Origin: Patescibacteria group bacterium
Lineage (GTDB): Bacteria; Patescibacteriota; Microgenomatia; UBA10105; UBA927
NCBI GenBank assembly: GCA_035510735.1
Contig: DATKGN010000013.1
Span: 64,596-128,595, forward strand
DNA length: 64,000 nt
Reading direction: 5' to 3'
Made by a program: the position numbers and the translations under genes. The notes beneath the pieces were generated by a model, which saw only the letters and a program-made list of their open reading frames with translations, searched no databases and was not told where the DNA came from. The stretch's first letter is position 1, and the number at the start of each line of letters is the position of its first letter. Of this stretch, positions 1 through 38,960 are shown in pieces.

Positions 1-988
1 TCGGGTAACTATGAAGGGTATTCCCGGACAAATAGAAAACGACACTACCTAGGAATGCCCGCCAGTCCCACACGAGAAACGGGAGCATAAGGGCAAGACT
101 TACAAATCCGGTCACAAACGTGTAAATCACTATAGATTTCAGTGCGTTTTTGGAGGTAAACCAGACGTAACCAATGAGGAGCGGAAAAGCAAACCACGCG
201 GTCTGCTTTGTCATCATCGCGAGGGCAAATGCGATAGCGCTCAGTATCAGATGTTTCTTATCTACCAGAAAAAGTGCAAGAACAAACCAGAACAGCACCT
301 GGACATCGCTTCTTCCCTCTATAAAATAATTAATCGTCGCAGGATTGAATGCGGTAAGCACAACGGCAATCCGTGCAATATTCTTGTCTTTTATCCAAAT
401 AAAAAGAAGAAATAAGAGACCGAGCATTGAAGCTAAAAGCGGCATCCTGCCATCGAAATATCCGAGCGTTCTCATGGAGACAAAATAAAACGGGTAAGCG
501 CTCAGAAGATACCACGGCGGCATAACGAAATGATAAAGAGCAGGATTTACCGCGTCTTTTCCATCTTCAGCGTAATGCCAGCTCTCCATCGGCGTCCCGA
601 AATAAGTCTCTTTATAGGGATTTTTACCCTTTGTGACGTAGCGGATAGCTGCTTCAAGCTGCAAAATGATGTCATGGGTCTGATAATTTTGACCGGGGGC
701 TATTTTCCCTCGATCCGCGATCGACGTCCACATGGCGCCTACCAGCGCTATAGTGATAATCCCCCACATCGCAGTATTTTTTATAATGGTAAAGAAGCGG
801 CCGGTTGTGTCGGCCCAAAAGGAATATAAAATATTAAAAAAATTAAGGACAAAAAAAATCAAAAAAACCGCGTAGGATGTGCTTTCAACAGGAAAAATCC
901 GGTATTGCATGACCACTGGTGTTGAGAGTGCAAAAAGAAGAGTCGCCTCAAATAAGCAAAGGAGCCTTTTGGAATCCATTGATTTCAT
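1..988 (-). CDS. Polytopic membrane protein, GT-C-like (DUF2029/GT87-like, tentative). The C-terminus lies beyond the window edge. It is a paralog of 28791..29948.
   Basis: Manual minus-strand translation from the ATG at 986-988 (MKSMDSKRLLCLFEATLLFALS...) is open all the way to position 1. It is not in the ORF track because no stop falls inside the window. The protein is hydrophobic and multi-TM. Shared motifs with 28791..29948 include KGKNPY/HKNPY, HxPxxYxPLW-like and AFNPATI/ALNPLVI. It overrides the short ORFs 330..515, 530..829 and 879..1112. Confidence 0.5.
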   Translation of the reverse strand, partial: MKSMDSKRLLCLFEATLLFALSTPVVMQYRIFPVESTSYAVFLIFFVLNFFNILYSFWADTTGRFFTIIKNTAMWGIITIALVGAMWTSIADRGKIAPGQNYQTHDIILQLEAAIRYVTKGKNPYKETYFGTPMESWHYAEDGKDAVNPALYHFVMPPWYLLSAYPFYFVSMRTLGYFDGRMPLLASMLGLLFLLFIWIKDKNIARIAVVLTAFNPATINYFIEGRSDVQVLFWFVLALFLVDKKHLILSAIAFALAMMTKQTAWFAFPLLIGYVWFTSKNALKSIVIYTFVTGFVSLALMLPFLVWDWRAFLGSVVFYLSGNTLHSYP

Positions 989-1027
989 AACCAATTCTTC
1001 TTATTGTACCACGCTCGAGCCTAATTC

Positions 1028-2506
1028 TCAGTGCTCATATTCATATATCGTTGAAACTCCCACCCTCGTCGACCCGACATTCTTCCACTTCCAAATATCC
1101 AGGATCGGATAATCAAATTTACATAAAAAATCGTAACACATAGTGTATATACGCTCATTCATATGGATCTCATCTATCGTAGGACACTGTCCGCTCTCAC
1201 ACACCAAAAATAACAGATTATAATTTTTGGTATCGATTGGTTGAACAGCGATATGACGTAGCATAAAAAAGAACCGGTAATGAAAATCAGAAAATGAGGG
1301 TGAGGATATAATCGTAAATGAAAACGGTTTTCCGCCGGCCAGCCGGATGATGGCGTCCGTATTAATTTTGGCACGGAGAATATCCCGATTACCGGGTTGG
1401 AGTAAGTCGGTGTGCAATACCATCGTAAAAGCCAATATGATAATAATTCCGTAAACAAACATGTTTGGAATACGCCGGGCAAGCACATACAACGCTTCTC
1501 CCAAGAGAAGAAAGACAAATGGAATCAAACTATACGCATATTGCCGTTGAAGCTTATCCTGATAAAACGCTAGTATCGCGATGCTGAATAAAACAAAAAG
1601 AGAAATATAGCGGGCACTTTTCCGTTTGCTCAGAAAAGCGATGAACAGAATAATAACGACAAATATTAATGAGATATATCGCTGTAAAATCGGTAATAGA
1701 TAATTACCAAGCCACGAACATAACGTTATAACATTATTTATATATACGTGTTTAGAAAAGGCTAAACCCTTTGCTTTAGAAAAAGTAACAAGCGAACCCG
1801 TGATATCAATAAATCCTTTATGCCACTCATAAATCAAGAACGGAAAAAGAGATAATATTCCCAGAAGTACAGCGACGATAAGCCACACTAAATACGTTTT
1901 AACTAATTTATTCCTGAACGCTTCAATGAAAGTAATAACAAGATAAACAAAGGAGGCAATAATCAGGATACCGTTTGCGTAGTGCAGCTGGATAAGTATG
2001 ACGTCAGATAGCATGAGAAGAACAATTGCCCAATATTTATTTCTAGACATCAAGTAGATAGAATTCAAAACCAATAAGGTAAAAAAGGGAACGGTTGTTG
2101 GAGGCCACAAGATTCGATCCTGATGTATAAGCATTGGAGACAAAGCGTAAAGCATGCTTACACCATAACCAAGACTAAAACCAAATAGTGAAGACGCAAG
2201 CATCAGCATGAGGATAACGGAAAATATTTCTATGATACTCATCTCGATAGCCGGAACCACAGGGTTAAAGTGAGACAAAATAAACGATGGGGCAATGAAA
2301 TAATAATAGAAGGGCCCCGTATATTGACCTGTACTAAGAGGAGGCCCGTACACAGGAAACTGTCTCTGTGTAACGAAGTTCATAATGGCGACGCCGTCCC
2401 TACCCTGATCTCCCAAAAACTGCGTTAAATCACTAATTCTGTACAACCGAGCGAATGAAGCCGTAAGAACAAGAACGAGGATTAATAAAATTCTTTTTAT
2501 GTTCAT
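1028..2506 (-). CDS. Polytopic membrane protein with an N-terminal 'RLYRISDLTQFLGDQGRDG' loop. Likely a GT-C fold glycosyltransferase (ArnT/PMT-like DE-type motif). Paralog of 30704..32311.
   Basis: 492-aa ORF with more than 10 predicted TM segments. The FLGD(Q/E)GRD motif sits after the first TM, as in its paralog. Its stop abuts the start of 2507..4183. Confidence 0.55.
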   Translation of the reverse strand: MNIKRILLILVLVLTASFARLYRISDLTQFLGDQGRDGVAIMNFVTQRQFPVYGPPLSTGQYTGPFYYYFIAPSFILSHFNPVVPAIEMSIIEIFSVILMLMLASSLFGFSLGYGVSMLYALSPMLIHQDRILWPPTTVPFFTLLVLNSIYLMSRNKYWAIVLLMLSDVILIQLHYANGILIIASFVYLVITFIEAFRNKLVKTYLVWLIVAVLLGILSLFPFLIYEWHKGFIDITGSLVTFSKAKGLAFSKHVYINNVITLCSWLGNYLLPILQRYISLIFVVIILFIAFLSKRKSARYISLFVLFSIAILAFYQDKLQRQYAYSLIPFVFLLLGEALYVLARRIPNMFVYGIIIILAFTMVLHTDLLQPGNRDILRAKINTDAIIRLAGGKPFSFTIISSPSFSDFHYRFFFMLRHIAVQPIDTKNYNLLFLVCESGQCPTIDEIHMNERIYTMCYDFLCKFDYPILDIWKWKNVGSTRVGVSTIYEYEH

Positions 2507-4183
2507 TTATAAAGATGAATCTGTTTTTAATACTGATGAGGGTGTCGCCTGATAATTCACAATCTGAAATGCTTCTGAACCACCTCTCCATGATACGGTC
2601 TCCAAAAGTCTATCGTTTACTCCAAGTACACATCCCCCGCGGCGAATAAGCAATATATGCAGTTTGTCCGATATCATATTGTAATCTTTGCTCTGGTTAA
2701 AAGACGGACAATCATAAGGAACAAAAACATATTTATCGAAACCCTGATAATCCAAATCGCGGTGTGATCCAGATGCCTGATATTTCAAAGGATCATATGC
2801 GCTGAAAAATAGAAAATATATATATGGGCTTTCATTTCCTTTGGTAACAATTATTTTGCTATAAGAATTATAATATTTTGGTATTTCCGTTACGAGTTGT
2901 TTATAAGCAAAACCTCGATAAAAAGGGAAATGCACAGGCTGATGTACAAAGAATTCTTCGGTGAAAAATGAAAAATTGATAACGTAAAAAACACCGATTC
3001 CAATCAGTATAAATTTTACACCCAAAACCTTTCTCATCCCTTGACTGAATTCGGTTATTCCTGTTGCGATTAGCGCAGACAAGGGTAACGCGTTAATTAT
3101 GTAACGGTGAATATTCGGAGTCTCGTCAGATGCGAAGGAAAGCAAGGCCGGTGTTATCAGAAGCCAGGAAATAATAAAATATCCCCATCGATATCTTTTG
3201 TGAAATACAGTATAAATACCGTATAACAAAAACGGAAGATCGATTAAATAAAGAATACCAACACTCGGGATAACTTCTCTCCTGGGCTGACCGGCTTCAT
3301 AAAAAAGATAATCAAAACTGAAGTACTGCATGTAATTATGCATAAGATATCGACCATATTCGGATATTTTATTATGAAATAGTCTCGCGGTTTTAGCACC
3401 AATTTGCTGTACCCCGTCCTCTCTGAATTTTTCCTGCAGCGGCAGCATGACTCTGTCGGTCGTAAAAATGTTAACTTGTCCGAGCCGGGCTCCCGAAGAA
3501 TTTAAGGTTAAATATCCCACAGAAATAATCATGAAAATATACAAAACAACCAAATATATTAACCATCTGCCCTTCCAAGTATTCCGTTTAAAATACCAAA
3601 GCAGCGGAATAATAATAGGTACAAATAACCGCGGAATATAATATGTCACCATACTGACACTTAAACTAATCATTGCAGTAAAAAACCATATGAGTTTCCC
3701 GTTATTTTTCCACTTCAGAATAGCGATTAATCCCAAGATAACAAAATCAGAAGCCAATAATGCCGGTTCGCTCTCACGTGATACAAGAATTGTCATTGGC
3801 ATAAGTGCGGACAATCCTGCTGCCAACAGTGATAGGTTATCGCGCTTCGTCAGGTCCTGTATGAATAAAAACGTCAGTAGCACCAAAAGAACACCGCTGA
3901 GAGCCGATGGTAGTCTCGTTGCGAATTCGGTAAGACCGAACATGTAAATAAATGGTATCGAAAGGTATGAATAAAGCGTGCCTTTATAATCCCCGAAGGA
4001 TTTCATTATTATTGGCAATAATTCTCCGTATTCATCTTTTCCGGTTTTCAGAATGGAATATGCGTTATATCCGAATGCCGCCTCATCCGCATGAAAACCC
4101 TCCGGAATCTGACCCAATCGGTAAAAGCGAAGTGCTGTAGACAAAAGAAGAATACACAATAGTATTCCGGTAGTTTTATTCAT
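2507..4183 (-). CDS. GT39 / PMT_2-family (ArnT/PMT-like) phospholipid-carrier-dependent glycosyltransferase.
   Basis: The N-terminus reads 'LRFYRLGQIPEGFHADEAAFGYNAYSIL...FGDYKG', the classic DE-motif loop of GT39/PMT_2 proteins. It is a 558-aa polytopic membrane protein. Confidence 0.7.
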   Translation of the reverse strand: MNKTTGILLCILLLSTALRFYRLGQIPEGFHADEAAFGYNAYSILKTGKDEYGELLPIIMKSFGDYKGTLYSYLSIPFIYMFGLTEFATRLPSALSGVLLVLLTFLFIQDLTKRDNLSLLAAGLSALMPMTILVSRESEPALLASDFVILGLIAILKWKNNGKLIWFFTAMISLSVSMVTYYIPRLFVPIIIPLLWYFKRNTWKGRWLIYLVVLYIFMIISVGYLTLNSSGARLGQVNIFTTDRVMLPLQEKFREDGVQQIGAKTARLFHNKISEYGRYLMHNYMQYFSFDYLFYEAGQPRREVIPSVGILYLIDLPFLLYGIYTVFHKRYRWGYFIISWLLITPALLSFASDETPNIHRYIINALPLSALIATGITEFSQGMRKVLGVKFILIGIGVFYVINFSFFTEEFFVHQPVHFPFYRGFAYKQLVTEIPKYYNSYSKIIVTKGNESPYIYFLFFSAYDPLKYQASGSHRDLDYQGFDKYVFVPYDCPSFNQSKDYNMISDKLHILLIRRGGCVLGVNDRLLETVSWRGGSEAFQIVNYQATPSSVLKTDSSL

Positions 4184-4286
4184 AAAATAAATTCAATCAA
4201 TATTGCGTACCGGTATTATAACGACTGTTTACCATTATATCCAACGCTTTCAAATTGGTGTGGTCTGTGAAATAATGCGGTAAAAT

Positions 4287-6695
4287 ATGGATTGTGTCCG
4301 AAAATTTATGAGGTCGTATTGGCCGCTCGTCAGCATTATCATCATCATTCTCCTGTTTTTTTACAAAACTGTTATTTTTGGAAAAATTCCGTTTCCGGGC
4401 GATTTACTTCTCTCTGAATATGCGCCGTGGCGGCATGCGTCATACTTCGGCTACGCGCCGGGCGCAATTCCGAGTAAAGCACAGTACTTTGATGTCGTAC
4501 GGGAACTTTATCCGTGGAAAACCCTGGTCATTGACCAGTTGAAAAAATTTCAAATACCGCTCTGGAATCCGTATAATTTTTCGGGAACCCCGCTTCTTGC
4601 CAACTATCAGTCGCAAGTGTTCTACCCACTTGGGATACTCTATTTTATTCTTCCCCAAAAGACAGCGTGGACCGTGCTTCTTATTCTCCAACCCATTCTC
4701 GGATCGGTATTTCTATACTTATTCGCTACGGAAATCGGTCTTTCCGCCACAGCTGGCTTATTAGCTGCACTCCTTTTTAATTTTTCAAGTTTCGCAAATG
4801 TCTGGATGGAATTTAACACCGTTTGGCATACAATTCTCTGGCTTCCCTTACTTCTGTATCTCCTCGAACGAAGCATCCGTGAGAAAAAAATTCCACTTAG
4901 CCGAAAATTAATTTTTATCTTCGTGCTGTTTTCCTCAATTACAGGAGGCCATCCGCAGGATTTTATCGATACTTTTATTTTCCTTTCCGTTTATGAAATT
5001 ATCCGACTAATATCAATCAAAATTTGGACTCCTCAATTCAAACGGACATTTATAATACAACTGTTTTCCATGACAATAATCCCTTTTTTGCTTGCAGGTC
5101 CGCAACTACTTCCGACTATAGAGCTTTTCCGACTCTCTTCACGTGTACCACATGATTTAGCCTTTATTCTCACGACTATGCTCGTCCAATGGTGGCAACT
5201 TCCCATGCTCATCGTCCAAGACTTTTTTGGCAATCCGGCAACGCATTCATACTTTCTCCTTGATACGTATGTCAATAAATCGCTCTCCATCGGGGTCACT
5301 GGTTTTATTCTCGTTGCGGCCTCGTTATTCCAAAAGAAACGCGGCTGGCACCAGAAATTTTTTATCGGCGTGGTCCTCACCGTACTTCTTCTCACCGTTA
5401 ATACTCCGTTTGCGCTGGTATTTTACCGGTTTCCGATTCCAATACTCTCAACTGGAAGTCCAACACGTATACTTTGGATGCTTGCTTTGGCTTTTTCCAT
5501 ACTCGCCGGTTTCGGGTTTGATCGAATCAAAGAGCTATCGTTTAAACAATTCATTCCTCCTTTAATCGTAAGCTTCATGAGTATAGGAATACTGTGGGTT
5601 ATTACGCTCATTCATCCCTCATTCGGAAACGTGATCATGAATACCACAACAACCAAACATGCGCTTATTATCGCGACAGGTATTATTATTTGTCTTTCAT
5701 TTTTACTTTTTATAAAACACCTTCATAAATTTCTTGTATACGGGATAATCCTAATAACCATATTTGAACTCGCGTATTCGTTTATGAAATTCAACCCCTT
5801 TGTCCCCCAAGAATTCATGTATCCTTCACATGCGGTTTTAACCTACTTACAGACTTATGCAGGTATTAACCGATATTGGGGATACGGGACAACACGGATG
5901 GAATCTAATCTAAACGCGCAGTACCAACTGTATACGACAGACGGCACGGATCCGCTCAATCTCGCCTTATACAACAAACTTATCCAGGCAAGTTCCAATG
6001 GAAAAATCGCTGAAGTTTTTGACCGCACAACCAGATCGGATGTCGCTATCGTGAAAGGATACGGCCCCACCGATTTGCCGGACAATCAGTATCGACTCCG
6101 CCTCATGGATCTGTTGGGAGTAAAATATGTCCTTGACCGTTTTGACAACCCTAAAAATAATACAACGTTTTCCGCTGATCATTTTTCACCTGTCTACTCC
6201 ACCCAGGACGGGTATACGATCTATAGAAATGTTAAGGCATTACCACGAGCATTTCTCGCCGACTCGGTCATTACGTATGCTTCGGACAGCCAGTTTGAAA
6301 AACTATTTTTCGATACAGCATTTAACCCGCAAACTACGGTACTCGTACCAGCAACGTCAACAATTCCTAAAACGGAACAAACAGAAAAGAAAGTCGCAGC
6401 CATCACTTCATACACACCGAATTCAGTTGAAATTAGAGCATCAACGGATAAACCGCAAATTCTGTTTCTTTCAGATACATTCGCGCCGGGCTGGAATGCA
6501 ACGATTGATAATAAGCCAACACCGATATTGTTAGCTGACTATGCGTTTCGTGCCGTCGCGCTGCCTCCAGGAGATCATATCGTACGATTTGTCTACTGGC
6601 CGAGGAGTTTTGAGCTCGGTCTAGTTGCAATGGTTATTGGAATCCTTATGACAATTTCTGTTGTTGTGCTTGATACTCTTAAACGAAACGGCTAA
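4287..6695 (+). CDS. YfhO-family membrane protein (GT-C-type glycosyl transferase for teichoic-acid or protein glycosylation), paralog 1.
   Basis: It carries 'LWNPYNFSGTPLLANYQSQVFYP' and the C-terminal 'FAPGWNATIDNKPTPILLADYAFRAVALPPGDHIVRFVYWP' block, both typical of YfhO (PF09586). It is 802 aa with many TM segments. Confidence 0.7.
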   Translation: MDCVRKFMRSYWPLVSIIIIILLFFYKTVIFGKIPFPGDLLLSEYAPWRHASYFGYAPGAIPSKAQYFDVVRELYPWKTLVIDQLKKFQIPLWNPYNFSGTPLLANYQSQVFYPLGILYFILPQKTAWTVLLILQPILGSVFLYLFATEIGLSATAGLLAALLFNFSSFANVWMEFNTVWHTILWLPLLLYLLERSIREKKIPLSRKLIFIFVLFSSITGGHPQDFIDTFIFLSVYEIIRLISIKIWTPQFKRTFIIQLFSMTIIPFLLAGPQLLPTIELFRLSSRVPHDLAFILTTMLVQWWQLPMLIVQDFFGNPATHSYFLLDTYVNKSLSIGVTGFILVAASLFQKKRGWHQKFFIGVVLTVLLLTVNTPFALVFYRFPIPILSTGSPTRILWMLALAFSILAGFGFDRIKELSFKQFIPPLIVSFMSIGILWVITLIHPSFGNVIMNTTTTKHALIIATGIIICLSFLLFIKHLHKFLVYGIILITIFELAYSFMKFNPFVPQEFMYPSHAVLTYLQTYAGINRYWGYGTTRMESNLNAQYQLYTTDGTDPLNLALYNKLIQASSNGKIAEVFDRTTRSDVAIVKGYGPTDLPDNQYRLRLMDLLGVKYVLDRFDNPKNNTTFSADHFSPVYSTQDGYTIYRNVKALPRAFLADSVITYASDSQFEKLFFDTAFNPQTTVLVPATSTIPKTEQTEKKVAAITSYTPNSVEIRASTDKPQILFLSDTFAPGWNATIDNKPTPILLADYAFRAVALPPGDHIVRFVYWPRSFELGLVAMVIGILMTISVVVLDTLKRNG

Positions 6696-13619: not shown

Positions 13620-13630
13620 AAACTTTGAAA

Positions 13631-29948: not shown

Positions 29949-29951
29949 GAC

Positions 29952-30695
29952 TTATGTATAATACCCTTTCCATGCGTTGTAACGGATCCGCAAAATATCA
30001 ACGAGTCCCTGAATAGAGTCAGTAATGGGATTGACACGCCTTGTCTCCACATAGTGCCATTCGACCGGAACCTCTTTGATTTTATATCCCCGTTTTTTTG
30101 CAAGAAAAATTACCTCAATATCAAAGCCCGCGGTCACCATGGAACCAGCGACTTTATGTTTTTCACCATATAGCCGCAAACTATGAAATATATCTTTTGC
30201 AACCTCACGTTTAAACGCCTTAAACCCGCACTGTGTATCAATAATACCCTTAAGTCCTAAAATCGAACCCCGCAGCATCATAAAACCGCGGGCCATCAAA
30301 AGCCGGAAGAATGGTGCTCCCTCACGTTTTGAACTCCTTGAACCGATAACGACATCAAAGTCTTGTTCAAAATACGGCAGTATCCTCTCAACCTCACAAA
30401 TCGGCGTTGCCTGGTCAAGATCGGTAAACAGCACGATATCGCCTTTAGCTGTCAACATACCAGTCATTACTGTACTTGCCTTACCCATATGCGGATTATG
30501 GATAACACGAAAATTCTTATTCGTATGAGTAAAATCATCAAGAAGTTTTGACGATCCGTCAATCGACCCGTCATCAACAAGAATTACTTCCCACGAATAC
30601 GGCTGATGCTCGAGATATAACGACACTTTATCGAGCGACCCCAACCGGATATTTTTTTCTTCGTTATATGCCGGAATAACAACGGATAATTGCAT
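29952..30695 (-). CDS. GT2 polyprenol-phosphate sugar synthase (Dpm1/GtrB-like).
   Basis: 'LSVVIPAYNEEKNI...VILVDDGSIDGSSKLL...GKASTVMTGMLTAKGDIVLFTDLD' is the signature. Confidence 0.65.
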   Translation of the reverse strand: MQLSVVIPAYNEEKNIRLGSLDKVSLYLEHQPYSWEVILVDDGSIDGSSKLLDDFTHTNKNFRVIHNPHMGKASTVMTGMLTAKGDIVLFTDLDQATPICEVERILPYFEQDFDVVIGSRSSKREGAPFFRLLMARGFMMLRGSILGLKGIIDTQCGFKAFKREVAKDIFHSLRLYGEKHKVAGSMVTAGFDIEVIFLAKKRGYKIKEVPVEWHYVETRRVNPITDSIQGLVDILRIRYNAWKGYYT

Positions 30696-30703
30696 ACTAT
30701 TCT

Positions 30704-32311
30704 CTACGTTCCTTTGTAATGAACTAGTTTATAAATTTTTACGAACGGCACGTCCCAAGAACCCACAATATCTGCCCTGCCAAATCCGGCAACTTCCCAC
30801 AGAGAGTTCCCGAGCGGTTTACAGTTCATGGTTTCACAAATCACTATCAACTGATTGGTGACCGTCTTTCGGTCCGGATCAGCACCCGCGGGCTCTATAG
30901 TAACCGGTGCTCTTCCCCAAATTTCAAAGAAGTACCGGTACGCATGATCAGAATTTCCTTCGGTGATGAGTGCAAAATTAAACGGCTTACCGTCTGTTCT
31001 TTCAAGCGCTACGCGTGCGATTGTCTGAATCTGCGATAATTGGTTGTTCGGGGGAAAAACGAAAGGGCGTCCCTGCCAATTAAAGAACAGGAGCGCCCCC
31101 CATAGAATAACGGTCATTACTTTGCCGACGGAACCGATCCAAAGTCTTGACAATGTAAACCCCAAAAAAAGAAAAGGCAGCCAGAATACGATCCCGAAGT
31201 AATAATCGTAAATCGCTTTCCGATAGAGTCCGAAAAGTAGAATGACGGTAAAAAACCAAACTAAGAGAAGAAATATCGCCTCAATAGAATAACCGGAATG
31301 ACCCGTCACCCGATCAATAGTTGAAACCCAACTCTTCGCTATTTTGGTCCTGACTTTTTTAAAAGATAATCCCGTAATAAGAATAAAAAGGAGAACGGGG
31401 ACATATATCGTCGCTTTTGTCAGTATAACGAGAACAAGAACATACCAATGCGGATAATTGTTCCACAGCGGCTCCTCAGGAATTCGATAGAGTAACCGGG
31501 CAAAAATTCGGAAAATAACGTCGCTGATCGTAGGGAAATATTGGGCCCAAGAAAATCCGGTGTCTTTACCCGCAAGTAAAAACTGAATAATAGATTTCGT
31601 ATTCGGAAATCCGTGCCGTACCTCAAAAGCTAAAAAGGGCAAAAAACCTATGATGAATCCGACGATTGTTTTAATAACGGTCCGGAAAAAATGAATTCGC
31701 CGAATCTGCAGGAGATACCAAACACCAACAACAACGAACAGAAACAAAAACAGGTAATGCAACTGGATCCCGATCCCTAGGGCGATACCGATAATGATCG
31801 CATCATATTTACCTGGTTTAACCACGAGCTTCCACAGGTAGTAAAGTAAACATAGTGAAAAAAACGGAACAATATTCGGATTCCAGGATGATCGGGAGTA
31901 CGCAATAACGAGCGGGGATGCAGCATAGATACTCGCGGCAATGAGGCCTGCTAATTTGTTAAAAAAATCGGTGCCGGTTTTATACACGAGGTAAATCGTC
32001 GCAATACCGAATAATGCAACCATGACAGCGGGTCCTACCGGGTCAAGTTTAAAGGCCCAAAGAAAAGGCAGCATAAAATAGTAATAAATGGGCCCGAGGA
32101 AAAATCCTCCGACGGAAGCCGTTGGGCCCAAAAGAGTGAATTTATGATTCACAATCATGTGCATGACGATAAGAACATCCCTGCCTTCATCTCCTAAAAA
32201 GGTCATGTAATTCCTAATCATATAGAGCCGTAAATACGCCCCGAGAAGAAGAATGAAGATAAGTACGATCTGTGACCAATATTTTAATATGAAGGGTTTT
32301 ACTGGTTTCAT
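30704..32311 (-). CDS. Polytopic membrane protein with the 'MTFLGDEGRDV' loop. Paralog of 1028..2506 and a likely GT-C glycosyltransferase.
   Basis: The start was trimmed to the internal ATG (MKPVKPFILKYW...) at 32309-32311. The track ORF to 32449 would overlap the upstream gene by 118 nt. Confidence 0.55.
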   Translation of the reverse strand: MKPVKPFILKYWSQIVLIFILLLGAYLRLYMIRNYMTFLGDEGRDVLIVMHMIVNHKFTLLGPTASVGGFFLGPIYYYFMLPFLWAFKLDPVGPAVMVALFGIATIYLVYKTGTDFFNKLAGLIAASIYAASPLVIAYSRSSWNPNIVPFFSLCLLYYLWKLVVKPGKYDAIIIGIALGIGIQLHYLFLFLFVVVGVWYLLQIRRIHFFRTVIKTIVGFIIGFLPFLAFEVRHGFPNTKSIIQFLLAGKDTGFSWAQYFPTISDVIFRIFARLLYRIPEEPLWNNYPHWYVLVLVILTKATIYVPVLLFILITGLSFKKVRTKIAKSWVSTIDRVTGHSGYSIEAIFLLLVWFFTVILLFGLYRKAIYDYYFGIVFWLPFLFLGFTLSRLWIGSVGKVMTVILWGALLFFNWQGRPFVFPPNNQLSQIQTIARVALERTDGKPFNFALITEGNSDHAYRYFFEIWGRAPVTIEPAGADPDRKTVTNQLIVICETMNCKPLGNSLWEVAGFGRADIVGSWDVPFVKIYKLVHYKGT

Positions 32312-32330
32312 AGTACAAGGTGACTTCAAC

Positions 32331-33449
32331 TTATTTTTTCCAAATGACTTTTGAATACATGAAATAATTCCAAACAAGGAGAAGCGCCGTTCCACCAAGG
32401 AAGTAAATAAAATAGTGCCGATCACCATATAATCGGACGCCAAGTTCAATTATTCCAGTTTGAATAACAATAACGCCGAATGCGGATGTGGCGTAAAACT
32501 GCAGGAGTTTCAGAAGGTACTGGCGGAAACCGGAAATTTTTTTGTGACCGAATGTCCATAAATTATTTAAATTATAGTTTGAAAAAATCGCAACACCGGC
32601 TCCGATAAGGTTAGCAACTGATGCTGTGAAATGAACCCAATTATGAAAAATCATCAGGAGCACAGCGTTAATTGCGAACCCAATTCCTCCGACAATAAGA
32701 AACTTAGAAAAAGATCCGGAAAATAATTCCTGCATTCGGGATTCAAAAATATACAGAAAAATATTTTTGATATATTCTGCCGGAGCGATTTTTGAGTGAC
32801 CGTAAAGTCGGTCGGTAAAATGAAAAGGAACTTCTAAAATCTTGGCACCGTGATGGATTGCCTTATGTAAAAACGCTATTTGAAAAACGTAACCGCTGTA
32901 TTTCGACAGCTCGGAATGTATCTCGACATAAAACTTTTTCGTATACGCGCGAAATCCACCGGTCCAATCATTAACGTGAATATGGCCTAAGCCGAACCGC
33001 ACAATTGAGTTTCCTAAGACGCTGTATATTTTTCGATGCATTCCCCAGTTTTCCGGAATCGAGCCGCCTTTAATGTATCTGCTTCCGACAACAAAATCAT
33101 ATCCGCGATCAAGAGCACGCAAAAATTCTGGTGCAACCTTGGGGTCATGCGACAAATCCGCATCTATCTGTAACACCGCATCAGCATCCATGTGGTCAAA
33201 GGCATAGGTCATGCCGCGGAGTATAGCTTTCCCTAATCCTTCTTTTTTACCCGTTATTATTTCAACGTTTTTATGCGTTTTTTTATATGCAACAACAGCA
33301 TCCCGCGTTCCGTCCGGAGACGTATCATCAACAACAAGATAAGATATGGCATGGTTTTTCACCACGCTAAATGCTTGGGTTAGTTGGCTAAGGAGCGAAG
33401 CGATATTTTCTCGCTCGTTATACGTGGGAACGACAACGACAACCTTCAT
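32331..33449 (-). CDS. Fusion protein: an N-terminal GT2 polyprenol-phosphate glycosyltransferase (Dpm1/GtrB-like) joined to a C-terminal GtrA-family flippase-like 4-TM domain.
   Basis: The N-terminal part reads 'MKVVVVVPTYNERENI...YLVVDDTSPDGT...GKKEGLGKAILRG...QIDADLSHDP'. The C-terminal part reads 'FLIVGGIGFAINAVLLMIF...ANLIGAGVAIFSNYNLNNLWTF', the GtrA/PF04138 pattern. The start was set at the ATG 33447-33449; the track uses TTG at 33476. Confidence 0.65.
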   Translation of the reverse strand: MKVVVVVPTYNERENIASLLSQLTQAFSVVKNHAISYLVVDDTSPDGTRDAVVAYKKTHKNVEIITGKKEGLGKAILRGMTYAFDHMDADAVLQIDADLSHDPKVAPEFLRALDRGYDFVVGSRYIKGGSIPENWGMHRKIYSVLGNSIVRFGLGHIHVNDWTGGFRAYTKKFYVEIHSELSKYSGYVFQIAFLHKAIHHGAKILEVPFHFTDRLYGHSKIAPAEYIKNIFLYIFESRMQELFSGSFSKFLIVGGIGFAINAVLLMIFHNWVHFTASVANLIGAGVAIFSNYNLNNLWTFGHKKISGFRQYLLKLLQFYATSAFGVIVIQTGIIELGVRLYGDRHYFIYFLGGTALLLVWNYFMYSKVIWKK

Positions 33450-33457
33450 AAATAATA

Positions 33458-34417: not shown

Positions 34418-34477
34418 ACGTCCTCCTTAAAATATGCATTATCCCTCGACTTCACTCGGGATGACACCGAAACGCCG

Positions 34478-35776
34478 TCACATTCTCCCTACACCATAAT
34501 ACATGAATCCAAGCTGCTTTACACGTGTAGGCTCATAGATATTGCGCCCGTCAAACAACACCAGAGATTTAAGACCCTTTGCGAGTTTGACGAGATCTAA
34601 CTGCTGAAACTCATTCCATTCCGTCAATACAACAACACCGTCAGCCCCATTTGCGGCCTCGTATGGATTTTTTGCGAACGAAACATCTTTAGGCAATAGT
34701 GGTTTTGCGTTATCCATAGCAACGGGATCGTAGGCGATAATTTTTGCCCCCTGTTTGACTAGTTCATTGATGATCGTAATTGAAGGGGCCTCCCGCATAT
34801 CATCGGTATTTGGCTTAAATGAAAGCCCGAGAACCGTGAGTGTTTTTTTGTGAAGGTTATTATTATAATGACGAAGAATTTTATCGACAAAATGCTTCCC
34901 TGCCTGTTTATTCACCTCATCCACAGCTTTAAGTAATGCAAAATTATAGCCATGCTCTTCCGATATCGCGATAAGCGCCTTCACATCTTTAGGGAAACAG
35001 CTGCCGCCGTAGCCGACACCCGGATAAAGAAATCCGCGTCCGATCCGCCGATCAAGGCCGACACCCTCCAATACCTGCTCAACGTCCGCGCCCACTTTTT
35101 CTGAAAGAAATGCTACCGCATTTGCAAATGATATTTTTGTCGAAAGCAAAGAATTGCTCGCATACTTGATAAGCTCGGCGGTTTCTACATTGCATAAAAC
35201 TTTTTTACCATCGATAGATTTATGAAGCTCCAATAATAGCTCTCGTGCCCGATCAGACGTAGTGCCAATAATTACCCGATCAGGATGAAGCGTATCCTCA
35301 ATGGCAGTCCCTTCTCGTAAAAATTCAGGAACCGAAGCGATAGCGAATGTTGCACCTTCAGGCTTATATTTCGTTATGACCTGTGAAACTTTTTGATTCG
35401 TACCGGGAGGAACAGTACTTTTTGTGACGACAACTTTATAACCAACCAACGCTTTTCCTATACTTTCTGCAGCGGCAAAAACGCTGGTTAAATCTGCTTC
35501 CCCTGTTGCCTTTGGCGGCGTGCCGACGCAGATAAAAATAATCGAGGACGGGGCCACCGCCTGTTTATAATCAAGTGTAAAAACGAGCCGCCCTGCATCA
35601 ACATTCCGTTTGACTAACTCTGATAACCCGGGTTCATAGAATGGAGCAATACCTCTTTTTAGCTTTTCGATTTTCTCCTTCGTCCTGCCGACCACCCAAA
35701 CAGTATTGCCCAAATCAGCAAAAACGGTAGCTGTCACTAACCCTACGTAGCCATGTCCTACAAATGTTACTGTCAT
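34478..35776 (-). CDS. ugd: UDP-glucose 6-dehydrogenase family (nucleotide-sugar dehydrogenase).
   Basis: 'VTFVGHGYVGLVTATVFADLG', 'ICVGTPP' and 'GGSCFPKD' are the family signatures. The start was set at the internal ATG (MTVTFVG) at 35774-35776. Confidence 0.8.
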   Translation of the reverse strand: MTVTFVGHGYVGLVTATVFADLGNTVWVVGRTKEKIEKLKRGIAPFYEPGLSELVKRNVDAGRLVFTLDYKQAVAPSSIIFICVGTPPKATGEADLTSVFAAAESIGKALVGYKVVVTKSTVPPGTNQKVSQVITKYKPEGATFAIASVPEFLREGTAIEDTLHPDRVIIGTTSDRARELLLELHKSIDGKKVLCNVETAELIKYASNSLLSTKISFANAVAFLSEKVGADVEQVLEGVGLDRRIGRGFLYPGVGYGGSCFPKDVKALIAISEEHGYNFALLKAVDEVNKQAGKHFVDKILRHYNNNLHKKTLTVLGLSFKPNTDDMREAPSITIINELVKQGAKIIAYDPVAMDNAKPLLPKDVSFAKNPYEAANGADGVVVLTEWNEFQQLDLVKLAKGLKSLVLFDGRNIYEPTRVKQLGFMYYGVGRM

Positions 35777-35781
35777 ATCGT

Positions 35782-35812
35782 GAAGAAAAATGTGGACGCT
35801 ACTCGCGCGTCC
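35782..35812 (-). terminator. Intrinsic-terminator-like hairpin between rmlD and ugd on the minus strand. The stem is GGACGC/GCGTCC and it is followed by a U-rich tract.
   Basis: The plus-strand sequence is tggacgctactcgcgcgtcc, with gaagaaaaatg just 5-prime of it. As minus-strand RNA this reads GGACGCGCGAGUAGCGUCC-ACAUUUUUCUUC. Confidence 0.3.
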
Positions 35813-35842
35813 CACCCACCTATATTACCATATTTTGTGCTG

Positions 35843-36730
35843 TCATTCTTCCTGACGTTTCATTTCTTTGATGCCATTTCGGAATGTATGCATTGTGACA
35901 CCCAGAGATGTAATTTTATCATTGGTGAGTGCCACGTACTGCGGCGTCGGAGCGCGGTCACGAAACATATCGGCAAAGGCAATTGATTTAATAAGTGCCG
36001 AATCACATCCGTATTCTGCTGCGATGGTAACTGCGGCTTCAAAAGGCGATATCGGACTGTTCCCGACAACGTGGTAGACACCATGCGCATCGTGAGTAAT
36101 CAGTGCGTCAATAGCATACGCAATATCGTCGATAAAAGTCGGTACGAAAAGTTGATCTTTCGGAGCCGTAATTCCCTGTTTCGATTGTAACCGTTCAAGC
36201 ATTTTATGGACAAAGTCTTTCTTACCTGGCTGTACCGCCAGGCCAACTGGGTGAGCGCGATAGGGATTTGAGATTCTGATAACTAACCCTTGATTTCCAA
36301 GCTCAAGAACTCGTTTAGCGCCTTCAAATTTTGTTTTTGCATACCATCCGAGAGGGTTAGGAACATCGTCTTCCGAATACTTGGATTTTTTTCCGTCGAA
36401 TGCATAATCAGTATCAATATAGAGGACTTTTTTTGAACACTTTACAGCATTATCAATAATTGACTGAGTGGCGGCGACATTTATTTTCCATGCAATACTC
36501 TTTTCTCCAAGAGATCGCTCCTTCTCAGCTCCCTGTACATCGGTAAATGCGGCAAAATGGAAAACCCAATTAGCGTCTGACTTGTCGAAAAATTGTTTTA
36601 CGCTTTGCGCATCGGTGATATCGACGCCGGTCTCAAGACTTAAATTTTCAAATGAATAACGGGAAGCAAGAAGTTCTGTGACTCTCGATCCGACAAGCCC
36701 TGATAATCCCGTCCCCAACACGTTGATCAT
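35843..36730 (-). CDS. rmlD: dTDP-4-dehydrorhamnose reductase.
   Basis: 'VLGTGLSGLVGSRV' and 'DTDYAFDG' carry the RmlD YxxxK/STDYVFDG-type signatures. The protein is 295 aa. Confidence 0.75.
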   Translation of the reverse strand: MINVLGTGLSGLVGSRVTELLASRYSFENLSLETGVDITDAQSVKQFFDKSDANWVFHFAAFTDVQGAEKERSLGEKSIAWKINVAATQSIIDNAVKCSKKVLYIDTDYAFDGKKSKYSEDDVPNPLGWYAKTKFEGAKRVLELGNQGLVIRISNPYRAHPVGLAVQPGKKDFVHKMLERLQSKQGITAPKDQLFVPTFIDDIAYAIDALITHDAHGVYHVVGNSPISPFEAAVTIAAEYGCDSALIKSIAFADMFRDRAPTPQYVALTNDKITSLGVTMHTFRNGIKEMKRQEE

Positions 36731-37743
36731 ACGCCGCTCCCGTATTGTTGTTTATAGTACGTTTGATACGCACCAGTTTTGACGCGGCGCCACCATGATT
36801 CATGTCCTTTGTACCAATCGATTGTTTTCGTTAACCACTCATCAAAATCATGAAGAGGCGCCCACTGAAGCTCATCGCGAATCTTCGTCCAATCCATTGC
36901 ATATCGGCGGTCGTGACCCGGTCGGTCTTTCACAAATTCTATACATGACTCATCTTTGCCCATTTTTGTAAGTATTTGTTTCACAACTTCAAGATTATTA
37001 ATGTCGCGTGTCACACCGCCAATGCAATATGTCTCTCCTATTTTGCCTTTTATAATAACTGCCTCTATTGCCCGGCAATGATCTTCGACGTACAACCAGT
37101 CACGTACATTTTTACCGTCTCCGTAGAGTGGCACTTTTTTCTCCTCGAGAATGTTGGTTATCGCAAGCGGAATAAATTTTTCCGGAAAGTGGTACGGCCC
37201 GAAATTATTCGAACAGTTGGTGATACTTATAGGTAATCCAAACGTATGGTAATACGCGCGTACTAAGTGATCTGAGCCTGCCTTACTTGCTGAATATGGA
37301 CTTCTGGGGTCATATATTGTTCGTTCATTAAATTTATTCGAATCATCTAGTTTAAGCGAACCGAACACCTCATCTGTCGATACGTGATGGAACCGGGAAA
37401 CTTTGTGAGAGAGCGCTGCCTCCAACAGAATCTGCGTCCCGAGCACATTCGTCCGCACGAAAGGCATCGGATCGTGAATCGATCGGTCCACATGACTTTC
37501 TGCGGCAAAATGCACGACGACATCTACGCCTTTCATCGCACGGTTTACTACATCAGGATTACAAATATCTCCGTGTATGAATGTATATCGTGGATTTTTT
37601 TCGACCTCAACGAGGTTTTCTAAATTCCCTGCATACGTTAAGGCATCAAGGTTGACAACTTCATCTCCCGAATGTCCCCGCATCCAATAAAGAATGAAGT
37701 TGGATCCGATAAACCCTGCGCCGCCGGTTACAAGTAATTTCAT
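36727..37743 (-). CDS. rmlB: dTDP-glucose 4,6-dehydratase.
   Basis: 'MKLLVTGGAGFIGSNF', 'HFAAESHVDRSI' and 'YSASKAGSDHLVRAY' are the RmlB signatures. Confidence 0.85.
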   Translation of the reverse strand: MKLLVTGGAGFIGSNFILYWMRGHSGDEVVNLDALTYAGNLENLVEVEKNPRYTFIHGDICNPDVVNRAMKGVDVVVHFAAESHVDRSIHDPMPFVRTNVLGTQILLEAALSHKVSRFHHVSTDEVFGSLKLDDSNKFNERTIYDPRSPYSASKAGSDHLVRAYYHTFGLPISITNCSNNFGPYHFPEKFIPLAITNILEEKKVPLYGDGKNVRDWLYVEDHCRAIEAVIIKGKIGETYCIGGVTRDINNLEVVKQILTKMGKDESCIEFVKDRPGHDRRYAMDWTKIRDELQWAPLHDFDEWLTKTIDWYKGHESWWRRVKTGAYQTYYKQQYGSGV

Positions 37744-37749
37744 AGAGGA

Positions 37750-38226
37750 TTACGTAATCTTCTTATTTGTAATAGGTAGACCCTTCGTCCAATCATATCC
37801 GATTTCGGGATCGTTATATGGAATTCGTCCTTCTTCGGCCAAAGAATAAACACCGCTTGTCACATAGACAAGATCAGCAGGACCCTTTAACACCTTGAGT
37901 CCGTGGGCGACACCGGCCGGAATCTTCAGCACGATATTCGGTTTACCTGGCTCACCCAGAATAAATTCGTTTAATTCCTTATACGTTTTTGAGGATTTTC
38001 TCACGTCATACACTGCTGCCTTAATAACCCCTGATGCGACGTACCACCAATCAATCTGTGTTTTATGAAGATGCCAGGCTTTCACAACCCCCTTTACCAT
38101 ATAGGAATGCGACATCTGCGCAAACCCTTCTGTAAAGAAGCTGTCCGTAATCCGTATTACTTCCTCAAAATATCCACGTTCATCAGGATGTCTGACTAAC
38201 TCTTTGATTTTTACCCCATCTATCAC
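37750..38226 (-). CDS. rmlC: dTDP-4-dehydrorhamnose 3,5-epimerase (cupin).
   Basis: 'HPDERGYFEE' and 'AWHLHKTQIDWWYVASG' are the signatures. The protein is 158 aa. Confidence 0.75.
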   Translation of the reverse strand: MIDGVKIKELVRHPDERGYFEEVIRITDSFFTEGFAQMSHSYMVKGVVKAWHLHKTQIDWWYVASGVIKAAVYDVRKSSKTYKELNEFILGEPGKPNIVLKIPAGVAHGLKVLKGPADLVYVTSGVYSLAEEGRIPYNDPEIGYDWTKGLPITNKKIT

Positions 38227-38960
38227 AGTTTCTTCTCCTGTACAAGTTGAGCGACGTTATTGTTCGCTTTCAATAATTCGTCAAACGAAGTTCCTGCATC
38301 AATCCACCAATCAATAATCTGACAATGAAGACTGCCGTCCTTTAAATAACAATTATTGAGATCTGTTACTTCAAGTTCTCCGCGGAGAGACGGTTTTAGG
38401 CTTTCAATGAACGAAAACACCCGACTGTCGTACATATATATTCCTGTCTGGGCAATATCTGATTTAGGATGAGCGGGTTTCTCTTCTAATGAAAGAACTT
38501 TACCGGATTTATCAACTTCAATAACACCGTATTGTTTAGAATCAGTGTTAAGATGAATACCGAAAATCATCGCACCCTTCTTTAATTCAGTCATTTTTTT
38601 GACTGATGGACGGAGATCGAAGTTGAAAATATTATCCCCTAAAATAACCAATATCGGCTCATTTCCAGCGAATTCTTTCGCAAGAGCAATTGCCTGAGCG
38701 ATTCCGCCTTTTGGATTCTTTTGTATAGCGTAATAGAGCTTCAGATTAAATTCTTCACCGGCTCCGAGTAGATTTGCAAAGTGTCCCGCATGATCCGGCG
38801 CAGTTGATAACAAAACTTCTTCGACTCCAGCCCGATGCATCGCTTCAAGCGGATAATAGATCATCGGCTTATTATAAATGGGTAGTAAATGTTTATTGGT
38901 GACTCGAGTCAATGGCTGAAGTCTGGTGGCCATGCCGCCTGCTAATATGACACCTTTCAT
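38223..38960 (-). CDS. rmlA: Glucose-1-phosphate thymidylyltransferase.
   Basis: 'MKGVILAGGMATRLQPLTRVTNKHLLPIYNKPMIYYPL' is the signature. The start was set at the internal ATG 38958-38960; the track ORF carries an implausible 43-aa leader. Confidence 0.85.
   Translation of the reverse strand: MKGVILAGGMATRLQPLTRVTNKHLLPIYNKPMIYYPLEAMHRAGVEEVLLSTAPDHAGHFANLLGAGEEFNLKLYYAIQKNPKGGIAQAIALAKEFAGNEPILVILGDNIFNFDLRPSVKKMTELKKGAMIFGIHLNTDSKQYGVIEVDKSGKVLSLEEKPAHPKSDIAQTGIYMYDSRVFSFIESLKPSLRGELEVTDLNNCYLKDGSLHCQIIDWWIDAGTSFDELLKANNNVAQLVQEKKL

Follow-up and report, generated by a model that had tools for sequence, protein, structure and literature searches.

In mycobacteria and corynebacteria, lipomannan, lipoarabinomannan and arabinogalactan are assembled outside the membrane with many membrane glycosyltransferases of the GT-C type (PimE, MptA/B/C, EmbA-C and AftA-D), which make one linkage each and share one or two polyprenyl-phosphate sugar donors (Ppm1, DPA), and the mycobacterial genes concerned are spread over a 4-Mb genome. 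With regard to Gram-positive bacteria, the multi-component transmembrane systems (CsbB/GtcA/YfhO, GtlA/GtlB, CsdAB/CD/EF with CflA, and GacI/J/K/L) comprise a GT2 lipid-sugar synthase, a flippase of the GtrA type or Wzx, and one to four GT-C enzymes of the YfhO or PMT_2 families, scattered in pairs (PMC8035078). The rhamnose-rich wall-polysaccharide clusters of lactococci and streptococci (cwps, rgp and gac, with the flippase WpsG and the GT-C enzymes WpsH and WpsJ) measure 20-30 kb and include one to three GT-C genes, the rhamnan backbone being exported by an ABC transporter (PMC10821137). Both the combination of a GT-A enzyme, a flippase and a GT-C enzyme, and GT-C polymerases or ligases that act after Wzx, are thus known precedents (PMC8035078, PMC10821137). 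Here, we analysed a stretch of 64,000 nt (the window) from contig DATKGN010000013.1 of a Patescibacteria genome, of which positions 1-39089 are the right-hand 39 kb of a glycosylation locus of at least 85 kb.

This locus comprises the same three parts as the Gram-positive systems, and in both the GT2 and GT-C genes adjoin (PMC8035078); however, it holds 14 GT-C genes in 39 kb for about three donor synthases, and at least 21 GT-C genes in 85 kb, its GtrA domain is fused to a synthase, and its host is a bacterium of the Candidate Phyla Radiation (CPR) of about 1 Mb. It is three to four times larger than the rhamnose-rich wall clusters, and in contrast to them no ABC exporter, TagO or LCP protein was seen in it. 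One of its GT-C proteins, a 653-aa protein hereafter named F653, exhibits no detectable sequence similarity to named families, and its position beside Wzx in the conserved core fits the logic of a GT-C enzyme following Wzx (PMC10821137). As in the mycobacterial assembly, few donors serve many GT-C enzymes, and MptA_B/GT87-like proteins and AftA/AftD-like fold matches are present. In contrast to that assembly, the genes are gathered in a single contiguous locus, YfhO, PMT_2 and PTPS_related are the main families, and we saw no evidence of an arabinose/decaprenyl-phosphate pathway or of a mycolate envelope. Bacteria of the CPR, whose genomes measure about 1 Mb, are deficient in many core pathways, and to our knowledge no teichoic acid or wall polysaccharide is known in them. 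The locus would equal about 7-8% of a genome sized like those of the complete relatives (0.995 Mb for OY969569.1, i.e. 995 kb, and 1.218 Mb), yet it is kept gene for gene.

With a probability of roughly 0.75, we propose that this is a chromosomal, vertically inherited surface-glycan assembly locus, in which flipped lipid-linked oligosaccharides would be extended, branched or transferred outside the membrane by GT-C enzymes sharing a few lipid-sugar donors. In a full-text literature search, no paper was found that connects YfhO, GT-C, ArnT or PMT_2 with CPR, Patescibacteria, Microgenomates or Gottesmanbacteria. The phrase "29 genes of glycosyl transferases" receives a brief mention in a Microgenomates genome paper (PMC7143001), glycans are absent from a 2024 perspective on the unexplored biology of Patescibacteria, and a Saccharibacteria pilus study calls glycosylation in Saccharibacteria unexplored. 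The enzyme classes are known; their scale and the dominance of GT-C enzymes in a minimal-genome lineage have not been described before. The locus also includes a sizeable unnamed STT3-like family.

GT-C proteins of the window and their conservation

Pfam scans and the listing of open reading frames (ORFs) gave 29 genes within positions 1-39089, with nearly no non-coding DNA. The intergenic gaps are mostly of -4 to +12 nt, an operon-like spacing, and 27 genes lie on the minus strand. An earlier interpretation of the same DNA (the sequence-only reading) had described a single, almost uninterrupted minus-strand array with at least 13 GT-C transferases in 39 kb. The tight packing and the dense GT-C array are real, but two genes (4308-6695 and 9078-10724) lie on the plus strand, the GT-C count in the window is 14, and the locus extends well beyond 39 kb. 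The GT-C genes comprise four YfhO, five PMT_2-like, two YfhO/PTPS_related-like and two GT87/MptA_B-like genes, and F653:

2-988, minus strand: N-terminal 329 aa of a 425-aa polytopic GT87/PMT_2-like protein, running off the left end; weakest GT-C call
1028-2506, minus strand: PMT_2-like GT-C, 492 aa, about 9 transmembrane (TM) helices, FLGDxGRD motif at residues 30-37; assigned by paralogy
2507-4159, minus strand: PMT/PMT_2 GT-C, 550 aa by the gene caller (ORF to 4183); PF02366 35.6 bits, PF13231 33.0 bits; HADE motif after TM1
4308-6695, plus strand: YfhO GT-C, 795 aa (ORF from 4287); PF09586 102.6 bits
6692-9016, minus strand: YfhO GT-C, 774 aa; PF09586 77.2 bits
9078-10724, plus strand: PMT_2 GT-C, 548 aa; PF13231 53.8 bits; HVDELD motif
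10725-12686, minus strand: F653, 653-aa GT-C-fold protein; assigned by predicted structure
13631-15889, minus strand: YfhO GT-C, 752 aa; PF09586 56.8 bits
16947-19256, minus strand: YfhO GT-C, 769 aa (ORF to 19280); PF09586 62.9 bits
23980-25626, minus strand: YfhO/PTPS_related-like GT-C, 548 aa (ORF to 25656), with MHDD...REGQFPVRW...YGYP; PF10131 20.6 bits, E 1.8e-4, below the cut-off
25653-27215, minus strand: YfhO/PTPS_related-like GT-C, 520 aa (TTG-start ORF to 27224; gene callers start later); assigned by fold
27234-28703, minus strand: PMT_2 GT-C, 489 aa (ORF to 28751); PF13231 42.9 bits; FTDEA motif
28791-29948, minus strand: MptA_B/GT87-like GT-C, 385 aa, about 10 TM helices; precomputed PF26314 MptA_B_family match
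30704-32311, minus strand: PMT_2 GT-C with FLGDxGRD, 535 aa from the gene-caller start (ORF to 32449); PF13231 41.0 bits

These genes account for 24.75 of the 39.1 kb (63%), a density beyond what chance can produce. The Pfam gathering cut-offs were 28.5 bits for PF09586, 26.1 for PF13231, 26.4 for PF10131 and 25 for GT87, and an unmarked match among the precomputed Pfam calls of the sequence collection means E<=1e-5. Nine proteins are above the Pfam cut-offs for GT-C families, two Pfam-less proteins were assigned by fold, and three by paralogy, profile comparison or sub-threshold match. Structures were predicted (AlphaFold, AF2) for F653 and for the product of 25653-27215, both of which exhibit the GT-C fold with a predicted local distance difference test (pLDDT) score of 91, whereas the other 12 were judged by sequence. 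An acidic motif after the first core TM helix is kept in all 14 proteins, which suggests catalytic competence.

The four YfhO paralogs that had been claimed are confirmed (PF09586 57-103 bits against a cut-off of 28.5). Judged from their pairwise identities of 27-33%, they are old paralogs, and all four exhibit an invariant Asp in the motif D-x(5)-[YFI]-P-W (D69 numbering). With regard to the three proteins described as PMT/ArnT(GT39)-like, the PMT_2/ArnT-like part holds by PF13231, but GT39 is unsupported. Two proteins pass PF02366 (PMT; 35.6 and 27.9 bits), and the Pfam scans found no PMT_4TMC or MIR domain in any window protein; we therefore filed the PMT-like proteins as PMT_2/ArnT-like. 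The two FLGDxGRD proteins are indeed paralogs (27% identity over 536 aa, E 6e-29), the 1028-2506 product having no Pfam match of its own and thus not reaching the PMT_2 cut-off.

The pair carrying HDD/TDD...REGQFPVR...YGYP, also recognised earlier, is paralogous as well (E 9e-37). The 25653-27215 product has no PF10131 match, and a third copy of the group just left of the window scores above the PF10131 cut-off (32.7 bits); compared by hhalign, this PTPS-like trio matches the YfhO quartet with a probability of 95.7% (E 8.7e-9). The model of the 25653-27215 product (pLDDT 91.3, predicted TM-score (pTM) 0.91, from a 39-sequence alignment) has only GT-C proteins among its top 30 Foldseek matches (STT3, AftD, PglB, AglB, ArnT, ALG12 and AftB), and is predicted to exhibit a beta-sandwich followed by a C-terminal TM helix at the end, as in YfhO proteins. 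At least 1381 members of its family were found in Patescibacteria, a few of which carry PF09586 or PF10131.

Two proteins had been called DUF2029 (GT87)-like. The 28791-29948 product is near the GT87 threshold (23.8 bits, cut-off 25) and matches TIGR03459 alpha-1,6-mannosyltransferase at E 6.6e-8, far below the cut-off of that model, in addition to its MptA_B match. The partial 2-988 product (about 8 TM helices, HD motif at residue 105) matches GT87 at E 1e-3 and NCBIfam NF046093, "cell surface glycopolymer formation protein", at E 4e-4. By hhalign, the 425-aa protein matches a PMT_2-like profile with a probability of 91% (E 1e-6) and, weakly, the MptA_B-like pair (36-55%). Its probable GT-C status is the weakest of the set, as it rests on this profile match and on sub-threshold matches.

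Five of the 14 proteins have no above-threshold Pfam match, which would be in line with an artefact, either a chimeric assembly or a set of transporters or degenerate pseudo-enzymes; a chimera and non-glycosyltransferase families such as transporters had been named as refuting outcomes in the sequence-only reading. An artefact is hardly credible. No polytopic protein of the window falls in a transporter family in the HMM searches, no transporter occurs among the significant fold matches, the GT-C folds are predicted at pLDDT 91, and the acidic motifs of the catalytic loop are kept. The locus also recurs in independent assemblies of six or more sequencing runs, in which its left 12.5 kb agree with the window at 100% identity and its middle and the junction with the housekeeping genes are likewise represented. 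A chimeric assembly is ruled out by these assemblies and by the same gene order in the complete genome OY969569.1.

The NCBI protein records of the window genes refer to a metagenome-assembled genome (MAG) of a Patescibacteria group bacterium (locus tags VMR81_*, 299-kb contig), the records HUD20154.1 to HUD20172.1 being in the leftward extension. Its SecA is 75-82% identical to that of Candidatus Gottesmanbacteria MAGs and 47-56% identical to those of other CPR and ordinary bacteria. By this marker the host, earlier guessed to be perhaps CPR-like, is a Candidatus Gottesmanbacteria (Microgenomates, CPR), a groundwater bacterium; OY969569.1 and JAHFKK010000001.1 are closed genomes of Gottesmanbacteria. 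OY969569.1 exhibits the order RmlB-RmlD-Ugd-Rmd-DPMS-PMT2b-GT2-MptA_B-PMT_2-PTPSl-PTPSl-GT2-Wzx-GT2x3-YfhO-GT4-YfhO, as in the window. The locus lies about 16 kb from secA in OY969569.1 and 18.5 kb here, because a block with ECF (energy-coupling factor) transporter and dihydroorotate dehydrogenase (DHODH) genes is absent from the relative. The orthologs correspond one to one, with identities of 43-62% for the GT-C proteins, 63-88% for the cytoplasmic enzymes of the locus and 76% for SecA. The synteny comparison suggested earlier thus shows the core conserved in the same order and at the same position, and therefore an ancestral and chromosomal locus whose paralogs were individually retained and whose outward-facing enzymes evolve fastest.

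Candidate lipid-sugar donor synthases, flippase and proposed assembly

The remaining genes of the locus within the window are seven GT2 and one GT4, the eight GT2/GT4 enzymes counted earlier, a Wzx flippase, rmlABCD, ugd and an Rmd-like reductase gene:

12699-13619, minus strand: cytoplasmic GT2, 306 aa; PF00535 83 bits
15886-16950, minus strand: GT4, 354 aa; PF00534 88.5 bits
19253-20005, minus strand: GT2, 250 aa; PF00535 59 bits
19983-20915, minus strand: rhamnosyltransferase-like GT2, 310 aa; PF13641 and PF00535; TIGR01556 rhamnosyltransferase E 1.6e-14, below the curated cut-off
20912-21823, minus strand: GT2, 303 aa; PF00535 81 bits
21827-23272, minus strand: Wzx-type MOP flippase, 481 aa, about 11 TM helices; PF13440 (Polysacc_synt_3) 178 bits, PF01943 89 bits
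23253-24002, minus strand: small GT2 of the polyprenyl-phosphate-sugar synthase subfamily, 249 aa; best PDB matches DPMS 5mlz (E 7e-12), ArnC and GtrB
29952-30695, minus strand: small GT2 of the same subfamily, 247 aa; PDB matches DPMS, ArnC and GtrB at E about 5e-14
32331-33449, minus strand: DPMS-like polyprenyl-phosphate-hexose synthase, GT2 fused to a 4-TM GtrA-like domain, 372 aa; PF00535 and PF04138
33458-34417, minus strand: Rmd-like short-chain dehydrogenase/reductase (SDR) of the GDP-6-deoxy-4-keto-hexose reductase/dehydratase family, 319 aa; best PDB match 2pk3
34478-35815, minus strand: UDP-glucose 6-dehydrogenase family (Ugd), 445 aa; PF03721, PF00984 and PF03720, all strong
35843-36730, minus strand: rmlD; PF04321 175 bits
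36727-37743, minus strand: rmlB; PF16363 273 bits (also PF01370)
37750-38226, minus strand: rmlC; PF00908 87 bits
38223-38960, minus strand: rmlA, from the gene-caller start (longest ORF to 39089); PF00483 195 bits

The DPMS-like fusion aligns from end to end with the P. furiosus DPMS 5mlz (residues 9-379 against 22-372, E 7.7e-39), including the GtrA_DPMS_TM domain. The two small GT2 enzymes also belong with DPMS, GtrB and ArnC, but they contain no TM segment and thus lack the membrane C-terminus of these synthases. In NCBIfam, 23253-24002 comes closest to PgfS, ArnC and Dol-P-hexose transferase, and 29952-30695 to PgfS (2e-20) and ArnC (8e-20), both below cut-offs. From these similarities, the three enzymes are likely makers of lipid-linked single sugars. 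Each adjoins GT-C genes (32331/30704, 29952/28791 and 23253/23980), and the other four GT2 and the GT4 are soluble. The 21827-23272 product, with its domain match and a TM count within the 10-14 of Wzx/MOP flippases, is the Wzx of the earlier description. The rmlABCD and ugd pathways, also claimed, are supported by strong Pfam matches at 34478-38960, the four consecutive rml genes covering the RmlABCD families of dTDP-L-rhamnose synthesis. The best PDB match of the SDR is the GDP-6-deoxy-D-lyxo-4-hexulose reductase Rmd (2pk3, E 1.6e-82); GDP-heptose and GDP-mannose 4,6-dehydratases come next.

Based on these similarities, the assembly may proceed as follows. RmlABCD would supply dTDP-L-rhamnose, Ugd UDP-glucuronate, and the Rmd-like SDR a GDP-6-deoxyhexose. 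The DPMS-like fusion, for which the homology is full-length, and the two small GT2 enzymes would charge polyprenyl phosphate with single sugars. In the conserved core, Wzx-GT2-GT2-GT2-YfhO-GT4-YfhO-GT2-F653, the soluble GT2 and GT4 enzymes would build an oligosaccharide on a lipid carrier, and Wzx would flip this lipid-linked unit. Outside the membrane, the GT-C enzymes would each add one specific linkage from polyprenyl-phosphate sugars, while F653, whose modelled fold is STT3-like, would polymerise the flipped unit or transfer it to an acceptor. The proposed product is a complex surface glycoconjugate with rhamnose, uronate and deoxyhexose, for which a wall-linked polymer, a lipid anchor and surface proteins rich in Ser/Thr are possible acceptors. 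The elaborate surface glycan of the sequence-only reading is supported as far as sequence analysis reaches, and it may also be combinatorial, as that reading supposed.

A classical Wzx/Wzy-dependent O-antigen or capsule cluster, perhaps acquired horizontally as a genomic island, would typically contain Wzx, rmlABCD, ugd and many GT2/GT4 genes, as seen here. We nevertheless consider such a cluster highly improbable, in agreement with the sequence-only reading. No Wzy_C, Wzz/PCP chain-length regulator, export or priming phosphoglycosyltransferase domain was found in the Pfam scans of the window or, mainly by precomputed Pfam, in the DNA to its left, and such a cluster does not account for the share of DNA coding for GT-C enzymes. 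As for an island, the GC content is even (0.39-0.45 inside the locus, 0.41-0.47 in the neighbouring DNA), the tRNA and Rfam scans of the window gave no match, no integrase or other mobile-island mark is present in the window, and the right border lies beside the same housekeeping genes in OY969569.1, the left border being beyond the DNA covered.

Alternatively, the locus could serve decoration only, as a collection of ordinary three-component systems in which each GT-C enzyme adds one side-chain sugar to a teichoic-acid-like or rhamnan backbone made elsewhere, the many alternatives allowing, for example, escape from phages. The three donor synthases, each beside GT-C genes, do resemble the CsbB/YfhO and Csd pairs (PMC8035078), and copy numbers in the outer part of the array differ among relatives, one locus (L093) having an additional YfhO and another (L091) an inserted methyltransferase gene. 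However, donor synthases and GT-C enzymes in the window stand at about 3:14 and not 1:1, the one-to-one orthologs in a relative with a SecA 76% identical indicate old, individually kept paralogs and not a fast turnover, and the YfhO and F653 genes lie inside the conserved Wzx/GT2/GT4 core and are not appended to it. Decoration alone is therefore unlikely to be the function; because of this donor ratio and the long retention of each paralog, stepwise extracytoplasmic assembly is favoured over optional 1:1 decoration.

The F653 family

F653, listed as a 653-aa unknown beside the GT-C proteins in the sequence-only reading, exhibits no Pfam match at E<=10 and no NCBIfam match, and the comparison of its profile with PDB sequences gave only noise. 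Its predicted structure (pLDDT 91.1, pTM 0.92, from a 32-sequence alignment) supports a GT-C assignment: the Foldseek matches at E<=0.005 are all GT-C proteins (PglB at 1e-6, STT3, DPY19, AftA and ArnT), with no transporter among them. The best matches are protein oligosaccharyltransferases, in the membrane domain and in the C-terminal domain alike. The WWDYG motif and any STT3 Pfam domain are absent from F653, which thus does not qualify as a member of STT3/PglB/AglB; with sequence identities of 11-13% to STT3, AglB and PglB, only the modelled fold appears alike. F653 also has an extra N-terminal set of about three TM helices, which is absent from many members of its family.

A pattern scan of the GTDB species genomes found no relative, and a word-indexed search found 35, whereas an exhaustive profile search gave 2054 cluster representatives, of which 960, most of them full-length, had E<=1e-30. 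The apparent rarity was rejected as an effect of the method. The family comprises about 1000-2000 sequence clusters at 50% identity, and the relatives with source names are labelled Patescibacteria or Gottesmanbacteria. F653 is thus a member of a sizeable unnamed GT-C family without a Pfam or NCBIfam model.

Metagenomes and Logan assemblies supplied 26 loci with F653; wherever a locus is long enough to show neighbours, F653 lies within a GT-C array, and two of these loci hold nine GT-C-like ORFs within about 20 kb. The string YfhO-GT4-YfhO-GT2-F653 recurs in at least 10 metagenome loci, and the string extended by a further YfhO recurs in relatives that are 39-62% identical. In a predicted metagenomic protein of 1639 aa (P0236), a Wzx part that shares 46% identity with the Wzx of the window is followed by an extracytoplasmic domain of about 470 aa and then by an F653 domain 27% identical to F653. 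Because of this fusion, of the invariable Wzx-to-F653 neighbourhood and of the STT3-like fold of the model, we suggest that F653 may work on the unit flipped by Wzx.

Proteins of about 1150 aa in the same family (P0200 type) also carry an N-terminal extracytoplasmic domain of about 470 aa, with a weak DUF3863 match. This domain is absent from the window and from the loci of F653 and of the island, and its sole match among the loci searched is in a Daviesbacteria locus near secA (L011).

The oligosaccharyltransferase-like fold also bears on another explanation, namely that the locus is mainly a machine for protein O-glycosylation, in which PMT, PMT_2 and YfhO-type enzymes would act on Ser/Thr-rich surface proteins (S-layer, pilins, membrane-anchored proteins) and F653 would be an STT3-like oligosaccharyltransferase for the Wzx-flipped glycan. 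The structural matches of both F653 domains, the two proteins above the PMT cut-off and the PgfS name of the small GT2 enzymes are in line with it, and membrane-anchored proteins rich in Ser, Thr and Pro adjoin the locus (at 43113-43940, for instance, 25 of 30 residues). There is also a precedent in streptococci, where GtrB with GT-C and Pgf systems glycosylate S/T-rich protein regions (PMC12041528). In contrast, most of the bacterial YfhO and PMT_2 enzymes characterised have teichoic acids or wall polysaccharides as their targets (PMC8035078), the missing WWDYG motif and STT3 match of F653 and the missing PMT_4TMC and MIR domains do not fit, a polymer is suggested by the supply of rhamnose and the number of GT2/GT4 genes, and at least 20 GT-C enzymes far exceed any known protein-glycosylation pathway. 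We regard this explanation as rather doubtful, and still favour a surface-glycan assembly locus whose acceptor could include proteins.

A broader claim can be put forward only tentatively. Gottesmanbacteria, and perhaps many Microgenomates, might possess a major undescribed envelope glycoconjugate, built almost wholly outside the membrane by a locus of at least 85 kb with at least 20 GT-C enzymes; F653 might be a new WWDYG-less, STT3-like enzyme paired with Wzx, in the role of Wzy, WaaL or PglB, and the glycan might be the main interface with hosts and phages. If the proposed reading of the locus is right, these bacteria would carry a large, hitherto unknown surface polymer or glycoprotein coat, probably governing host attachment and phage recognition, and glycobiology would gain, in compact natural form, over 20 diverged GT-C enzymes together with a new STT3-like family.

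Leftward extension and neighbouring genes

The glycosylation genes carry on along the same contig for at least 45.9 kb to the left, so that the boundary at window position 1 is an artefact of the window; the left end lies beyond the DNA covered. We walked this extension along identical contigs and classed its ORFs by precomputed Pfam, by our own Pfam scans of some genes and by hhalign. From the window leftward, it comprises in order:

1. Remainder of the 425-aa protein, two PMT_2, PTPS_related, GT2
2. 8-TM protein x379 (L118 8329-9468), DUF5667, MptA_B, PTPS-like 542-aa protein (probability 100%), GT4
3. 7-TM protein x366 (L118 13765-14865), GT2, second Wzx-like gene
4. GT2, GT4, PMT_2, two GT2, two SDRs, methyltransferase
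5. GT4, PMT_2, two GT2, methyltransferase
6. Two PMT_2-like paralogs of 575 and 579 aa (probability 68-79%)
7. SDR, GT4, methyltransferase, GT2, methyltransferase
8. 756-aa 9-TM protein x756 (L123 10718-12988), 325-aa protein x325 (12985-13962), 646-aa protein x646 (14003-15943)
9. Second F653 paralog (probability 98%), two further SDRs, GT4

In the whole locus, 22 GT-C genes are securely assigned, including the second F653 paralog, and up to about 27 are probable. x646 exhibits a weak AftD-type GT-C match (E 4.5e-3), and x756 a GGDD motif after TM1. x366, encoded beside the second Wzx-like gene, may be a polymerase of the Wzy type; as Wzy proteins often escape HMMs, both x366 and x379 stay Wzy candidates.

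Several points weigh against a surface-glycan assembly locus as proposed here. The whole case rests on homology and gene context. The 425-aa edge protein, x379, x366, x756, x325 and x646 have no secure assignment. The Pfam scans of the window recognised no priming phosphoglycosyltransferase (WecA/WbaP type), no LCP or Wzy_C ligase and no chain-length regulator, and neither these nor a Wzy or an acceptor were found in the window or in the 46-kb extension, which was covered mainly by precomputed Pfam and by our own scans of some genes; the start and the end of the pathway are therefore either missing or within unrecognised proteins. The GDP-6-deoxyhexose (Gmd/Rmd-like) pathway of the sequence-only reading stands as regards the Rmd-like SDR, but neither Gmd nor ManC is found beside it in the window. 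A free-standing GtrA flippase is also lacking, and as no glycosyltransferase match reaches the curated cut-off in the NCBIfam scan, no sugar or linkage specificity can be assigned. The Wzx-F653 fusion is a single predicted metagenomic protein, which may be a gene-calling merge, and the genome size of the host is inferred from relatives.

On the right, two genes lie at the border of the locus:

38975-39226, minus strand: DUF5656-like 83-aa ORF
39223-40161, minus strand: membrane-anchored CAP/YkwD-like protein with an S/T/P-rich linker

The latter is one of four small membrane-anchored proteins with Ser/Thr/Pro-rich extracytoplasmic linkers encoded right of the locus, the others being at 43113-43940, 40283-40879 and 46815-47318, all on the minus strand. 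The 43113-43940 product comprises a signal/TM segment, a globular domain of about 150 aa, the stretch PTPTNTPTPTNRPTPTLTPSPTSTLTPTPT, in which S, T and P make up the 25 of 30 residues given above, and a C-terminal TM helix. By analogy with streptococci (PMC12041528), these proteins are plausible candidate acceptors of O-glycosylation, and only a lead.

The rest of the window (40-64 kb) contains housekeeping genes, namely those for TsaB, TsaE, Sua5, FtsEX with a PcsB-like hydrolase, release factor 2 (RF2), RuvCAB, an ECF CbiMQO transporter, DHODH, SecA, SerRS, Ham1 and a class I LysRS. The TsaB/TsaD-family protein (PF00814; 40991-41299, minus strand), located among tsaE, sua5 and a methyltransferase gene, has only 102 aa and is a strongly shortened component of the t6A pathway. 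The PcsB-like protein (43985-45205, minus strand; coiled coil and Peptidase_C39_2) adjoins the ftsX and ftsE genes (45213-46851, minus strand), an arrangement typical of the FtsEX-controlled cell-wall hydrolases of Gram-positive bacteria. Directly upstream of prfB (RF2), a 123-aa ORF (48398-48769, minus strand) exhibits one N-terminal TM helix and no family match; a programmed frameshift of prfB suspected at 48.4 kb was ruled out, as this ORF is a separate membrane gene and not a short leader.

Between ruvB and secA, positions 51126-55701 hold a block with a cupin, ECF-type CbiO, CbiQ and CbiM-PDGLE, dihydroorotate dehydrogenase and a PNPOx-like protein. At the corresponding position of the closed relative OY969569.1 (L005), CbiM, CbiQ and DHODH gave no match, which points to a local indel. 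Finally, the class I lysyl-tRNA synthetase (PF01921; 62309-64000, minus strand), whose gene leaves the window at the right, carries a C-terminal B3_4 domain (PF03483), an unusual fusion, as this domain normally sits in the beta subunit of phenylalanyl-tRNA synthetase.

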